A program made the position numbers and the translations under genes. Shown one piece after another: positions 20,737 to 30,000 of a stretch of DNA of 31,634 nt. The stretch is from a virus: IMG/VR virus record IMGVR_UViG_3300029915_000104. The stretch is one strand, 5' to 3'. The notes below the pieces were generated by a model. It searched no databases. It saw only the letters and a list, made by a program, of their open reading frames with translations, and was not told the DNA's origin. Every line of letters starts with the position of its first letter. The stretch's first letter is position 1.

Positions 20737-20745
20737 ATATTTAGC
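20737..20745 (-). promoter_or_regulatory. Late-promoter-like motif GCTAAATAT (minus-strand reading), 17 nt upstream of the gp25-like ATG
   Basis: Plus strand atatttagc at 20737-20745. One of several (C)CTAAATAT copies placed just upstream of minus-strand gene starts. It resembles T4 late TATAAATA. Confidence 0.35.
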
Positions 20746-20773
20746 GGCGGCTATAAACCCTCCGGTTAATCAC

Positions 20774-21556
20774 CTAGTGGAATTCCGGCGATTCTTCGTC
20801 TTGTTTGGCGATGTCTTGGATCGCCTCCATATCGGGCCACGTGGTTTGCACCAGCCGATAGAATTTATAGAACCGACGCGTAAACTTGCGTTGGTAGACG
20901 GTGTTAAGACTGTGCAGCCACGCGCTTTCGAACCAGATGTCATAGACCCGGCGAAATTGGCTATAACTAATGGTCTTGAAACGATCGGGTGGCTTCTTGG
21001 CCATCGCTAGGAGAGCGAGTTTGTAGATAATTGTGTGCAGGCCTTGTTGATAATAGCCATTGAATTCGATCGGGCTGTTATAATACGCGGCCCGATCGGC
21101 AACTGGCGGTTTGCCGGATTTGGCGACATTGGCTTTGTGTTGGGTATAGCCGCGTCGATAATCCATCACATGGGTAAACTCATGGGTGAACTGTGCCCAG
21201 TCGAGTTTGTAGCCGAGGTCGATTTGGTCGCGCGGATCGTCTTTCAGCATCATCACCAAAAGCATGTGTTGCCGTCCGGCCATGGTGGCGGTCGTGACAT
21301 AGGCATCACTGGTGGATTTTGGGTTCCAGCCGAGGCCGATATAGAGGTCCTGATAGGGGATGCCGACTTCGGTGGCGCGGAGCAGCCACAGTTCATCGCC
21401 TTTGGCCGTCCGGACATTAAAGAGGCCCATGTCTTTGAGCGGCGTCTTGGCATTGGCTTGGTAGAGCCATTGCGAGAACTTATGCGAGGCGCGTTGTGCA
21501 TAGCGCAGTTTGCGCAGGTCAATCTCAGGCGTCTCGAAGAGTTCCGTCGCATGCAT
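20774..21556 (-). CDS. HExxH zincin-like putative metallopeptidase (260 aa). First gene of the wedge/fiber operon.
   Basis: ATG at 21556 (MHATELFE...); the ORF track begins at a TTG at 21628. FTHEFTHVMDY contains the HEFTH motif, and a possible third ligand lies in NSPIEFNGYY about 40 aa downstream. No family was assigned. Confidence 0.55.
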   Translation of the reverse strand: MHATELFETPEIDLRKLRYAQRASHKFSQWLYQANAKTPLKDMGLFNVRTAKGDELWLLRATEVGIPYQDLYIGLGWNPKSTSDAYVTTATMAGRQHMLLVMMLKDDPRDQIDLGYKLDWAQFTHEFTHVMDYRRGYTQHKANVAKSGKPPVADRAAYYNSPIEFNGYYQQGLHTIIYKLALLAMAKKPPDRFKTISYSQFRRVYDIWFESAWLHSLNTVYQRKFTRRFYKFYRLVQTTWPDMEAIQDIAKQDEESPEFH

Positions 21557-21560
21557 AACG

Positions 21561-21569
21561 ATATTTAGG
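21561..21569 (-). promoter_or_regulatory. Late-promoter-like motif CCTAAATAT (minus-strand reading), 4 nt upstream of the HExxH gene ATG
   Basis: Plus strand atatttagg at 21561-21569. Its position implies a leaderless or very short leader transcript, or a downstream true start. Confidence 0.3.
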
Positions 21570-21713
21570 TTCCTAGCGGTGAAGTGTCGCCGTTTCGTTG
21601 GACCCGAGAATTCTGTGAAACCGAGCAAAAAACCTGTTGACGGGGGCGATCGAGGTTTCTAGAAGATGCGCCACGGCAGCCCGGCTGCTGGTCCTTGGAA
21701 AACAGGTGTTGAG

Positions 21714-26279: not shown

Positions 26280-29200
26280 GAAGAACCTTGTGAAAATGAG
26301 TTAGCGCCAAGGGAAAAATATGAGGCGGGGGTGGTGCCATTGGCGTCTTGCGGATTGGCCCCACTCTTGATGAAATTGGCCGCGCCAGTCGGCCCCGCGA
26401 TATGTGCTGCTGCCAATAAGCCTGCGGTTTGATTGGGTGTGGTATCGCCGGTGATCACGCCCTGATTGACCAGACTCTGATAGTTACGTTGCATACCCGT
26501 ATCCATAACCTGATTCTGCACAGTGGGATTGGCGAGATAATCACTTAGCGAATGGATGCCGTCCTTGCCGGTCCACGAACTGTCTTGCTGGAGCACGGAT
26601 GAATCGGATTTCGCAGCGATCGCCGAGGCCGCTGTGGTGTAGCCTTGATCGGCCAGATAGGCGGCGCCGGTTATTGCCTTGTGCGGGATTGTTGCCGGAT
26701 TCCTTGGCGCCGAGGCTGGCTTTGAGCGCAGCGGTTTGATCGGCTGTGAGATTGCCCACCGTCGTCGTGTCAGCGGCTTGCAGAGCCGTGGGGATCGCGG
26801 CCGTGGAGGGGCTGGTGCCTTCGGTGAGGCTTTGCAGGGTGCTGGCGCTCGCGGGGGTCGCTGATTGGGTCATCTGGGCTGAGGACCCGGCCCCACCATT
26901 GGTGTTGGCTGAACTGCCTGGGGTATTGGAACTGCCGGTGATTCGCGCCGGGTCGAGCAACAGTTCACGATTGGCCATGATGGTCTGTTTGAAGGTGCCA
27001 TCGGTGAAAAAATTGTTAATGCGGGTCACGGTGTAGAGTCCACCGAAGATCGGGCTGTCCTTCAACACCGGCTTGAAATCTTCGCCGACAGCACTCGGGT
27101 ACCGGAACTTCAAATAGAAAAGCTGTCCACCCCCGGACCATTCCGGCAGATCGACGAACGTGGCCGGGGTTTCGGCGCGCAGCGCGATTTGTCGTTGCAA
27201 ATTCGATTGCCCGAGCCAGAACGGATCGCCGCGTATCTGCATCTCGATCTGATTGAATTTCGTCATGAAGGTGGGGTCTTCCTGTGCCAGGATCGCGCCC
27301 GCGACCGATTGATCGCGCGTGTATTGCCCGGAAAAGCCATCCTTACCGCTTGCGATTTTCGCACCCTGCGTGCTGGGCCAAAATGGGATCAAGATCGGCA
27401 GATTCTGATTGGCGCTGGTTTTACTGGCGAGCGCCGTGAGTAAATCTTCGACGAACACTTTATTACTACCTTGCGCGACCTCGGACAGCGTTTTCGGAGT
27501 GGATGTGGTGCCGGAAGCATTATTACTGGCCGCCATCGGTGTATTGCCCAGCGACCTCGGTGTTGTGCCGGGCACGTTACCGGTCAGCGAAGCGGCAACT
27601 GACCCTGCCACCCCGTTCGCTTCGACCGTGCTCCGGGCATTGGCTGGTAATGCGGCCAGTGTCGAGGCCACTGAGGTCGAGCCGCCGAACAATGCCGCCG
27701 TCTGAGCGCCGATGCCATTGGCCTGCACCAGACTGGCCAGGGACGGGCTGTTGGCCACGTTAGCGGGGGTTGCCACGCACGCTGCGGTGACCGGGGTGCC
27801 GCCCGTATTGTCCACCGTGACGTTCTGTTTGCCACTCCCGACCGTCAGATCGATATTGGCGGTGTCGCGATCGTAGGTAGGGCATTGGCTGGCGGGATTG
27901 TTGGCCGCATTGGATGAGACCGAATCCATGCCCTGGCGCGCGCCCGCATAGCTTGGGGTTAGTGCCTGAAACATGAAGTTGAAATCGTAATTGAATTCCA
28001 GCACTTCGGTGTTGAGACCGGTAAAGACAAAATCATATCGTTTGTTTAGATACTGGTTATCGATGAGTTTCTGAATCATCTGGCGTTGCACGGCGGGGTC
28101 TTTGGCATTGTCGGTTTGGGTTCGGCTGATGATGGCGCTTTGCGAGGCGCGTGATCGCACATTGTAGACGACTTTTCGGGTGTAATTCAGGGACGTGCCA
28201 TCTTTATCATGGCCGGTGATTTGCGAGTCCGCCTCGACCGAAAACAACACCGATTCGCGAAATTTGCAGCCGTTGGTGGTATTTGAATCGAGGTCCTGTC
28301 CGGGGTTGTTGGGCAGATCATCGATCGTAATGGTGTGGCCTTCTTCGGTATGTTGGATCGACGACATAATAAAATTTTGGGTGCTGGCTTGCGGATTAAC
28401 CACTGGGCTATACTTGCCATTCACCATATCATCCGCTTTGGACGGGCTCTTGCTGGGTTCTTGCGCTTTCAGCTTGAAGTTTTTCGGGTCTTTGCCGATG
28501 GTTGACGCTGGGCCTTTGTCGATCGGGAAACTGACGATGGAGATGTCCAACAGCGGCAGATTCTTGCTCTTATCGACGCCTTGGGCATCCTCGCGCGCCT
28601 TATTGACCTTCGTCGCGTAATCGTCCCAAAGCGCCCCCAACGTGTCGCCGACGACGCGAAACGGGGTCATCGACGGCGCATAATGAATGCTGTTATACTG
28701 ATCGATCAAAGCGGCCGATTCATTCGTCATCAACGTGATGGTATAGACGCCGCCGCCCTCGTTCAGTTTGACATCGATTTTGGTAATTTGGATCGAATAG
28801 GTCCAGACCCCGCCGTTACTAAAGTCCTTCGCGGGATTGACATAATTGCCGTTTTCGTCATAGCCTTTGAATTGCACTTCCAGATAGTATGAGCATTTGG
28901 TAAAATCAGAGATCGCCAGCTTATTGGCAGCGGCGGGGAAACTATCCAGGAAGCTGGAACCCAGCGGATCGGTCACCACCAGGGTAAAGACGCTGGGCGT
29001 CATGTAAAGCGTTCGCGCCGTGCTGGCGGCTACCGTGTCGATTTCGAGGGACTTGATATTGAACCCGGTCACGCCGCTTTCGGCGATGGTGACTTGCGGG
29101 ATCGTCTGCATCTTTTGGTTCAGCGTGCTGATATCGGTGGCGCCGGTCTGCGCCACCATGTCGCCTTCGCGCGCGAGGTAGAAGCGGATATGATAGGTTG

Positions 29201-29657
29201 GTTGGTAGACCGAGTTCAGCGCATTGCCCTGCATGCCTGCAATCATCGCATCGAATGAAGCGGCAGCAGGCCGATTATCCACGGGCAGGGCCTTGATCGG
29301 CGGGGCCGGGTCGGTGGCGGGGGCTTCCGGCGATTTCGGCAGGAAATCGGTCTGCAAGCCGGGCAATCGGTTATCGGAAAAGCTATCGGCCGTGGCGCCC
29401 TCGACCGGCAGCCCGTATTGCTGCGAGGTATCGACATTGGCGCTATTGCCCAGGCTCAGGGTGAGCGGGGCGGCGACCGGCTGGGGCACAAAGCCCGGTG
29501 GATTAGGCACCACTGCCGGAGCGACCACCTCCTGCTCGGGGCTGAATGGTTTGATCACCATGGTCGGGATGGCGGCGCTGTTGGTCAGACTGCTGGGGGT
29601 GCCATCGGTCGGAAAAATCTGCAACGGCGCAATGCCGGGGCGAAAAATATCGGCCAT
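26276..29657 (-). CDS. Large baseplate or tail structural protein of about 1100 aa, hub- or tape-measure-like with long low-complexity linkers rich in Ser, Thr, Ala and Gly. The reading frame is interrupted by an apparent -1 frameshift near 26665-26680.
   Basis: Frame A runs 26541..29657 and reads well until ...LGAKESGNNPAQGNN, then becomes Arg-rich nonsense. The frame offset by -1 reads well from ...HKAITGAAYLADQGYTTAASAIAAK... through the ORF-track 106-aa ORF to the stop at 26276. It is coupled to the spike start (ATGA). No obvious slippery heptamer is present. Confidence 0.6.
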
Positions 29658-29962
29658 CAGGCGCCCGTTACGCGGCGCAGATAATCATGCTGCGGCACCA
29701 TGATCTGCAATCCTGGCAGGAAGTTCCAGATCGGGTCGCCGCGCAGAAACGGATTGCGCTCGCAGAATACCCACCAGAAGGCGGGCGACGCATACAAGTC
29801 ATAGGACAATCGGTCCGGGCGATACTGATGTTGCGGCAGTAACGTGTAAAGCTGATCGGTGCCATCCGGCGGCACCGCGCGAAAGACAAAGCGGCCGATT
29901 GCCCAACTTTTCTGTGGAGTCGCGCTATAGGGCGAATTGGCGGGATAGGTGACAACACTCAT
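29657..29962 (-). CDS. Hypothetical 101-aa protein. First gene of the hub/spike operon and a likely baseplate or tail assembly component.
   Basis: ATG at 29962 with AGGA 7 nt upstream; the ORF-track TTG start is at 29968. The stop overlaps the next gene's start (TGATG). Sequence MSVVTYPANSPYSATPQKSWAIGRFVF... Confidence 0.55.
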   Translation of the reverse strand: MSVVTYPANSPYSATPQKSWAIGRFVFRAVPPDGTDQLYTLLPQHQYRPDRLSYDLYASPAFWWVFCERNPFLRGDPIWNFLPGLQIMVPQHDYLRRVTGA

Positions 29963-29967
29963 GATCA

Positions 29968-30000
29968 AATCCTCTGTCCAATATTTAGGCGGACAGGATT
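29968..30000 (-). promoter_or_regulatory. Late-promoter-like motif GCCTAAATATT (plus strand 29980-29990) in the loop of an inverted repeat: AATCCTcTGTCC (29968-29979) pairs with GGACAGGATT (29991-30000). The repeat arm contains the gene's RBS.
   Basis: Read directly. The motif is 19 nt upstream of the 101-aa gene ATG. Confidence 0.35.

Follow-up and report, generated by a model that had tools for sequence, protein, structure and literature searches.

What does the short A/T-rich box that recurs just before minus-strand gene starts in the viral DNA stretch IMGVR_UViG_3300029915_000104 stand for? The whole stretch analysed, called the window hereafter (31,634 nt, 56.9% GC), comes from an uncultured jumbo myovirus of ~57% GC belonging to the Rak2 / CBB / Atu_ph07 / Phosso superclade, and the box is the heptamer CTAAATA. 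The original prediction, made from the letters of the window, took its copies for candidate gp55-type late promoters. That reading agrees with the enrichment of the box at gene starts, its conservation at orthologous positions, the sigma gene encoded nearby, the lack of a -35 element and the variants published for other phages, and (C)TAAATA is very probably the -10-like box of gp55-type late promoters. A CTAAATA late promoter is a known kind of element; the bimodal spacing between box and start codon described here, and the class of putatively leaderless genes that goes with it, extend beyond the known picture.

Recurrence and conservation of CTAAATA at gene starts

Three exact copies of the octamer CTAAATAT are found in the window, all on the minus strand (20737-20744, 21561-21568 and 29981-29988). 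Shuffled sequences gave a mean of 0.27 copies and 0/100 shuffles held three or more, in line with the three copies and the chance rate of ~0.3 originally put forward. The heptamer CTAAATA occurs five times against 0.80 expected, a number that none of 100 shuffles reached, the two copies beyond the octamers being CTAAATAG (23223-23229) and CTAAATAC (2349-2355). Both had been listed as variants, the latter one base off, at 2347-2354. When re-measured, all copies lie on the coding strand, 5-23 nt 5' of an ATG, so that the co-orientation and the ATG distances first described hold. Together, these counts show that the recurrence of the CTAAATA motif is non-random. The bare hexamer TAAATA is present seven times, again always on the minus strand (extra copies at 6262-6267 and 1697-1702); this count alone is not significant (4.1 expected, and 20/100 shuffles reach seven).

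The motif search was extended beyond the window, as had been suggested with the original prediction. Metagenome contigs with identical proteins reach ~8 kb and ~9 kb past its two ends and form with it a 49,082-bp composite holding 40 independently called genes, in which the upstream zone (at most 45 nt before a same-strand start) makes up 1.6% of positions. TAAATA was the most upstream-enriched of the 4,073 observed 6-mers (Bonferroni 1e-17), 13 of its 16 copies on both strands lying in the upstream zone (p=3e-21), and other A/T-rich 6-mers came nowhere near it. CTAAATA stood upstream of a start in 9/9 cases and CTAAATAT in 6/6, and the copies beyond the window precede called genes on both strands. 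With the deposited annotation of Phosso, TAAATA was again the top upstream 6-mer (8/15 upstream; ATAAATA 6/7), and among the sites are those of the gp25-like and portal genes, of a Holliday-junction resolvase and of the operon that diverges from the sigma gene.

The motif precedes the baseplate operon, gp25, the giant structural gene and ADP-ribosyltransferase genes, as well as portal and resolvase genes in Phosso and in the relatives L033, L034 and L036. No motif was found before sigma, SbcCD-like, RNase H and glycosyltransferase genes in the ~49 kb of the window phage and the relatives checked. This distribution, with boxes at baseplate, portal, resolvase-like and ADP-ribosyltransferase genes and not at sigma, recombination or replication genes, matches the T4 late-gene pattern. 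A search for portal homologues placed none of the best 120 of >8000 matches on contigs of this clade. In the relative L026 the top upstream k-mer is CTGAATA(T) (TGAATA 5/14, Bonferroni 0.04), located before genes at 1228, 2717, 4905, 6019 and 8958; this could represent a second class of promoter or a weaker form of the late one. In L028 (14418, minus strand) and L029 (14193, minus strand), CTAAATA is followed, after ~25 nt with a Shine-Dalgarno, by a conserved small open reading frame (ORF; MIKGI...) that was missed by the gene callers.

The motif is kept at orthologous positions in relatives although the intergenic DNA is otherwise unalignable. In IMG/VR relatives, whose 101-aa protein is 64% identical, the sole plus-strand TAAATA in 12.3 kb is a CTAAATA; the orthologous operon begins 29 nt further on with its first gene. 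Four relatives (gp25 ~60% identity, 50-60% GC) carry TAAATA 16-24 nt before gp25, and also before the giant gene wherever other genes part it from gp6. At a distance of 4-24 nt, TAAATA precedes every gp25 orthologue of L026-L029, L034, L036, Phosso and L018-L022. The spacer that divides the sigma gene from the baseplate operon has, in 7 lineages, TAAATA 5-32 nt before the operon's first ATG, the rest of the spacer being unalignable; no co-directional gene lies upstream of this spacer, which must therefore hold a promoter. More distant relatives, of 32-48% GC, carry A/G-TAAATA before gp25- and gp6-like genes. The persistence of the same core in relatives with very different hosts and a GC content of 32-60% points to a phage-encoded specificity factor.

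A profile was computed from 28 pooled sites of five high-GC loci, the TAAATA core itself having been the search term. Besides this core, information is found only at -12, directly 5' of it (C in 21/28), and both -13 and -5 are uninformative. The trailing T of CTAAATAT, at first counted as part of the motif, hence does not belong to it, position -5 being A4/C10/G8/T6 across the clade. The base at -12 varies within the family: A dominates in CBB, Phosso and most other members, and C dominates in the window phage, L004 and L028/L029. No -35 element was detected in the 28-site profile, which holds at most 0.3 bits at every position from -56 to -14. Scans for sigma-70-type promoter consensus stayed at chance level and gave no match at a motif site. 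Sigma-70 promoters and intrinsic terminators were also tried as operon boundaries and rejected, their matches being at chance level. The sites have no Rfam match and no RNA fold in common.

The neighbouring late sigma gene

A gp55-like sigma factor is encoded in the window, as originally proposed, in the form of a truncated plus-strand ORF (30078-31634) that runs off the window end and matches phrog_12791, 'sigma factor for late transcription', with E=1.7e-39. The full gene, found on contigs carrying identical proteins (L006:7051-9885, minus strand), encodes 944 aa. Its transcription diverges from that of the baseplate operon, and no TAAATA precedes the gene. Two intein-like insertions interrupt it. 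The N-extein spans 30078-30590 and intein 1 begins at 30591; this first insertion covers aa 172-515 (CVDQ...QNGN|T) and shows a TIGR01445 match (E 3e-4) and a faint LAGLIDADG signal. The second covers aa 555-878 (CLSGSTMIL...HSFN|C) and lies six residues past the equivalent of T4 T99, the -8 pocket contact.

In-silico splicing yields a 275-aa sigma that can be aligned without a break, at 91% coverage, to those of Phosso (3e-63) and CBB (3e-45; 37% identity), which have no interruption; its aa 147-272 align with gp55 of T4-like cyanophages (E down to 5e-7, tblastn). In T4 gp55, residues N13, F86 and T99 line the pockets for the flipped -9/-8 bases and are needed for -10 recognition (PMC7892883). 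All three are invariant in an alignment of the window sigma with verified T4 gp55, in which the NPxxxxTQ pocket segment aligns as well. Pfam gave no match for the spliced sigma.

One possible explanation that we considered for the C at -12 was the counterpart of T4 residue Y97, which stacks on the base at this position. The initial pattern was F-S-F-Y-T in the window phage and L004 versus F-A-Y-Y-T in CBB and Phosso. This idea was rejected because L034 (FSFYT), L035 (FAFYT) and L033 (FAWYT) all use ATAAATA, and because the Aeh1-like phage AS-sw keeps H-A-Y.

Eight sigma homologues of 400-450 aa carry an apparent insertion (P0229, P0258, P0199, P0195, P0203, P0210, P0239 and P0253). The three that were read (P0229, P0258 and P0199) have a mini-intein at the intein 1 site (...NWRGY|C...N|SY...); inteins therefore recur in the late sigma across the family. 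A further homologue, P0252 (47% identity), is located on a 5.93-Mb contig that may represent phage sequence in, or joined to, a bacterial chromosome, and may thus be a host lead for the wider family. Upstream of the sigma gene itself (29963-30077, viewed on the plus strand) stands an CCTATATAG box with TTGTAC ~17 nt further upstream, neither being kept in relatives; the pair may be a sigma-70-like early or middle promoter of this gene.

Spacing to the start codon and competing explanations

The spacing d, taken as the number of nt between TAAATA and ATG, is bimodal over the 28 sites. Eleven fall at 4-6 nt (2.5 expected; P=1.3e-5) and 17 at 18-33 nt, and no site is found at 7-15 nt (7.4 expected; P=1.8e-4). 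The two classes also differ in their ribosome-binding signals, a Shine-Dalgarno being present in 0/7 short-class versus 6/6 long-class genes of the composite (Fisher 6e-4). Across the loci, all ten called short-class genes are without a Shine-Dalgarno and 11/11 short-class starts are ATG (including an alternative start in L026); long-class sites mostly come with a Shine-Dalgarno, as do all 6 of the window phage. The short-class genes include those at 21556 and 2343 in the window, 16917, 17532, 18209 and 18865 in L011, 3496 in L006, 466 in L004 and 9915 in L028.

Many motif-downstream proteins, including the one starting at 1668 in the window, share an N-terminal pattern (MRYFELLAED, MRYHEIIAET, MHDIRRFIEIVTE, MNDLRKWMQLTEA, MRHDIRHWITLCE, MTLRELLQITE, MHATELFETPE, MSIRAWMRLVEA). 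It can be likened to the start of T4 Alt, a capsid-packaged ADP-ribosyltransferase (MELITELFDE), and on this resemblance the proteins may be packaged in the virion or injected.

We infer that the boxes act as promoters, that the neighbouring sigma reads them and that the genes behind them are expressed late. The host RNA polymerase core would carry the phage gp55-family sigma encoded next door, first freed from its two inteins, and this holoenzyme would recognise TAAATA at -11 to -6, together with the clade-specific C at -12, with no need of a -35 element. Transcription would start ~6 nt past the motif, and the transcripts would span the baseplate and other virion genes as well as accessory genes including ADP-ribosyltransferases. 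For the long class, a motif 18-33 nt before the ATG would yield a leader of 12-28 nt, mostly with a Shine-Dalgarno, as in T4; for the short class, a motif 4-6 nt before the ATG would put the start on or beside the A of the AUG and give a leaderless mRNA. If TAAATA ends at -6, as it does in T4, d=5 would place +1 on the A of the ATG, and the bimodal spacing may be regarded as indirect support for a start near +6 past the motif. Taken jointly, we tentatively suggest that promoters were repeatedly placed 4-6 nt from starts, leading to leaderless late genes (for HExxH, small and ADP-ribosyltransferase-type proteins), and that intein splicing could gate the late switch, a combination that we consider possible and would stop short of calling probable.

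Several points weigh against these readings. A phmmer search of PDB chains returned no T4 gp55 match with either the full or the spliced sigma. Three of the 16 composite TAAATA copies are not upstream of genes, and the copies with T at -12 are ambiguous, two being located in hairpin loops and one having TTGACA 19 nt upstream. RNA-seq of PA5oct, a member of the same superclade, reported only sigma-70-type promoters; these transcriptomic data were dropped as experimental support, and late promoters in the Rak2/CBB superclade thus remain predictions. At T4 late promoters, gp55 acts with the gp33 co-activator and the gp45 clamp. For CBB, its authors report no gp33 or gp45 homologues (PMC5259590). 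With regard to leaderless translation, the start-site offset is borrowed from T4 and could differ for a divergent sigma, the short-class start codons are automatic gene calls, about half of this phage's genes have no clear Shine-Dalgarno anyway, and sites with d=11 and d=12 occur in two lower-GC relatives, so that the gap between the classes is not absolute.

These last four points are what sustains the most serious alternative, namely that the boxes are late promoters but that the short class is not leaderless, owing to other start sites, miscalled start codons or read-through transcripts. It is challenged by the tightness of the 4-6 nt cluster next to an empty 7-15 nt interval, and by three consecutive co-directional genes that each carry their own motif at 4-6 nt. 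Miscalled starts also fit poorly with the N-termini: in L035 the baseplate operon opens with a gene (d=5) whose N-terminus aligns with those of its leadered orthologues in L034 and L036, and gp25, which is short-class in L018-L021 and long-class in the window phage, aligns in L019-L021 with the conserved FxGxST block. Moreover, the short-class genes are mutually non-homologous, and the layout has thus arisen repeatedly. Given this balance, we accord the non-leaderless explanation an appreciable minority share of the probability.

The remaining alternatives dispute the late promoter itself. TAAATA could be the -10 element of the host housekeeping sigma or of another phage sigma-70-like factor, the genes then being early or constitutive. 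It does look like an AT-rich -10 hexamer, CBB encodes a second sigma-70-like factor (PMC5259590), and one T-type copy, at composite position 46544 outside the window, has a perfect TTGACA 19 nt upstream. This copy is nevertheless an exception to a 28-site profile devoid of -35 signal, the sigma-70 consensus scans found nothing at the motif, a single core is used across different hosts and 32-60% GC, and the motif stands before canonical late genes and is absent before sigma, recombination and replication genes. This explanation is accordingly very unlikely.

A role at the RNA level, as an AU-rich translation enhancer replacing the Shine-Dalgarno or as a processing site, would concern mainly the copies at 4-6 nt. 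AU-rich leaders are known to aid ribosome binding, and the short-class copies occupy the Shine-Dalgarno position of genes that have none. However, the same strict 7-mer stands 18-33 nt upstream at 17 sites, mostly with a separate Shine-Dalgarno downstream, and it heads operons in divergent spacers where there is no upstream transcript. Genes lacking both Shine-Dalgarno and motif show no other AU-rich box, the sites have neither a common RNA structure nor an Rfam match, and a hexamer that does not vary is more readily understood as a DNA site read by a protein than as a loose AU-rich enhancer. We give this possibility an equally slight chance. Finally, chance or AT-rich intergenic DNA, to which the non-significant hexamer count of the window and the somewhat AT-richer intergenic sequence might point, is effectively refuted by the rank of TAAATA above all other 6-mers of the composite, by its equal rank in Phosso and by its conservation at orthologous sites across lineages.

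Read as a late promoter, the 7-bp box offers a practical means of annotating regulation in the giant phages of soil and peat, a large uncultured group, and predicts late, probably virion-associated genes, among them many of unknown function and ADP-ribosyltransferases. The logic of T4 late transcription would reach as far as distant jumbo phages of high GC content, there with a C at -12. If the short class is indeed leaderless, one 7-bp box would set both the transcription start and the translation start, and would give a hint at the translation biology of the host. To our knowledge there is no earlier case of gp55-type promoters doubling as translation-start determinants, and a limited full-text search found no report of leaderless transcripts from such promoters. 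The intein-interrupted sigma would provide a testable link between protein splicing and developmental timing.

Predicted promoter sites of the window and known systems

The gp6-like protein of the window phage shares ~40% aa identity with those of Phosso (Sinorhizobium), Atu_ph07 (Agrobacterium), XbC2 (Xanthomonas) and 121Q / PBECO4 / Rak2 / CBB. No GenBank phage matched when 11.6 kb were compared by megablast. The phage is known only from metagenomes, which to judge by the contig names stem from peat or soil, and a scan of IMG/VR with the gp25-like protein returned no relatives. The minus strand encodes, in this order, a gp53-like protein of 101 aa, a large virion protein, a gp5-like hub with a lytic transglycosylase domain, small genes, a 260-aa HExxH protein, gp25, a gp6-like wedge protein, a 3545-aa giant protein, a trio of 65-aa, 180-aa and major vault protein (MVP)-like genes, an 84-aa ORF and an ART-PolyVal ADP-ribosyltransferase. 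The structural genes of four of the predicted promoters span 20297-29962 on this strand (101-aa, 1136-aa, 1017-aa hub with SLT domain, 57-aa, 142-aa, 260-aa HExxH and gp25-like). The 101-aa, 57-aa, 260-aa, 140-aa (gp25) and 84-aa genes were independently called by metagenome gene callers on identical contigs.

For the baseplate operon, the predicted late promoter is the CTAAATA at 29982-29988 (minus strand, gCCTAAATAT). It is located in the 115-bp divergent region that separates the operon from the sigma gene, with 19 nt between TAAATA and the ATG at 29962 and a GAGGA Shine-Dalgarno in between, and the operon consists of the 101-aa gp53-like gene, the 1136-aa virion protein and the gp5-like hub. 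An inverted repeat CTGTCC...GGACAG (29970-29997, minus strand; fold z = -2.0) brackets CCTAAATAT of this promoter, its 3' arm overlapping the Shine-Dalgarno of the operon; it may be a regulator site or a DNA-level structure. Within the operon, the window lacks 29 nt at ~26666 that are present in the 99.96-100% identical contigs L005 and L006. The gap lies between GGCAATA direct repeats and splits the 1136-aa virion gene (26276-29657, minus strand) into two overlapping ORFs, as a frameshift or an assembly variant.

The next CTAAATA (23223-23229, minus strand, CTAAATAG) overlaps the stop codon of the hub gene; a distance of 23 nt, within which lies a GGAG Shine-Dalgarno, separates it from the downstream 57-aa gene (23199-23026). 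Further on, CTAAATA at 21562-21568 (minus strand, aCCTAAATAT) lies 5 nt before the ATG of the 260-aa HExxH gene (21556-20774). This is a short-class site, without Shine-Dalgarno, and its +1 is predicted to fall on the A of the ATG if T4 geometry applies. At this place the original picture of a minus-strand operon has to be amended, since a plus-strand 223-aa gene (21666-22337) probably interrupts the unit just upstream. Its codon-usage score is +0.10 per codon, versus -0.15 and -0.28 for the minus-strand ORFs of 249 aa and 92 aa that conflict with it (21573-22322 and 22332-22610), and the metagenome callers chose the 223-aa ORF. With its upstream neighbour on the opposite strand the HExxH gene needs its own promoter; it probably begins a new unit, and CTAAATA sits exactly there. 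The copy at 20738-20744 (minus strand, cGCTAAATAT) is found 18 nt before the gp25-like gene (20719-20297), with an AGGTGGA Shine-Dalgarno, and heads the gene string gp25 (baseplate wedge), gp6-like and 3545-aa giant protein. The last strict copy (2349-2355, minus strand, CTAAATAC) is again of the short class, 5 nt before the ATG of the 84-aa ORF (2343-2089) and without Shine-Dalgarno.

Two TAAATA copies of the window have T at -12. The one at 1697-1702 (minus strand, gtTAAATAa) is located 28 nt before the ART-PolyVal ADP-ribosyltransferase gene (1668-910), with a GAGGA Shine-Dalgarno, and is probably a late promoter, with less confidence than the C-type copies. It has a parallel in T4, where alt, the gene of a capsid-packaged ADP-ribosyltransferase, carries TATAAATA 27 nt upstream. 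The other (6262-6267, minus strand, TTTAAATAA) overlaps the stop codon of the 3545-aa gene and stands 33 nt before a 65-aa ORF (6228-6031) that heads the string of this ORF, a 180-aa coiled coil and the MVP-like gene. The absence of the motif from the MVP and coiled-coil pair, noted originally, thus holds for the strict form but overlooks this copy, whose membership in the class of the C-type copies is uncertain. Both TTTAAATAA copies are found in hairpin loops, at 6255-6275 of the window (minus strand, ATCGTT-TAAATA-AACGAT) and at L011:18355-18380 (plus strand, GGTT-TAAATA-AACC), the L011 copy (18365) not being 5' of any gene; they may form an element distinct from the C-type promoters. The MVP-like protein itself (829-840 aa; 2906-5395, minus strand) gives matches to PF11978, the shoulder domain of the major vault protein (E 5e-18), and to a vault repeat, which is unusual for a phage.

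Late promoters of T4 consist of TATAAATA at -13 to -6 with no -35 element (PMC2988020, PMC1524935). The window phage resembles T4 in the TAAATA core, the missing -35 element and the phage-encoded gp55-family sigma, and also in the genes concerned (baseplate, portal, resolvase and packaged ADP-ribosyltransferase), with long-class sites at 18-33 nt compared with 14-28 nt in T4. It differs in having C instead of A at -12, an uninformative -13, and a sigma of ~275 aa after splicing instead of 185 aa, with a ~90-aa insertion and two inteins. Moreover, ~40% of the clade sites (2/5 of the strict window copies) lie 4-6 nt from the ATG without Shine-Dalgarno, an arrangement absent from the 50-kb late region of T4, where 12 TATAAATA sites lie no more than 40 nt from an annotated start, all of them with a spacing of 14-28 nt.

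The closest counterparts are found in CBB and Aeh1. For CBB and GAP32, a MEME analysis identified ATAAATA at 35 sites preceding structural genes (Buttimer et al. 2017, PMC5259590), and the CBB list also holds CTAAATA(T) forms (PMC5259590). Both phages belong to the same superclade as the window phage, with a gp6-like protein at 37-40% identity, but no listed CBB site has an ATG 4 nt past the motif and the CBB sigma is without inteins. The late promoter predicted for Aeh1 is CTAAATA from -12, with C at -12 as the strong determinant, and was found before genes orthologous to late genes of T4 (Nolan et al. 2006, PMC1524935). The 7-mer is identical and Aeh1 has a diverged gp55, but Aeh1 is one of the T4-like straboviridae (~233 kb) whereas the window phage is of the Rak2/Atu_ph07-type jumbo lineage. 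In AS-sw, an Aeh1-like phage, gp55 retains the H-A-Y-x-T pocket of T4, and the window sigma has F-S-F-Y-T, which suggests that the C common to Aeh1 and the window phage is probably convergent.

The putative short class, finally, has its parallel outside late transcription. Leaderless mRNAs, which have a 5'-terminal AUG and no Shine-Dalgarno, are common in Actinobacteria, Deinococcus and archaea and are known from lambda cI. The short-class genes resemble them in their ATG start and missing Shine-Dalgarno, each with its own box and a +1 predicted on the A of the AUG ±1 nt.

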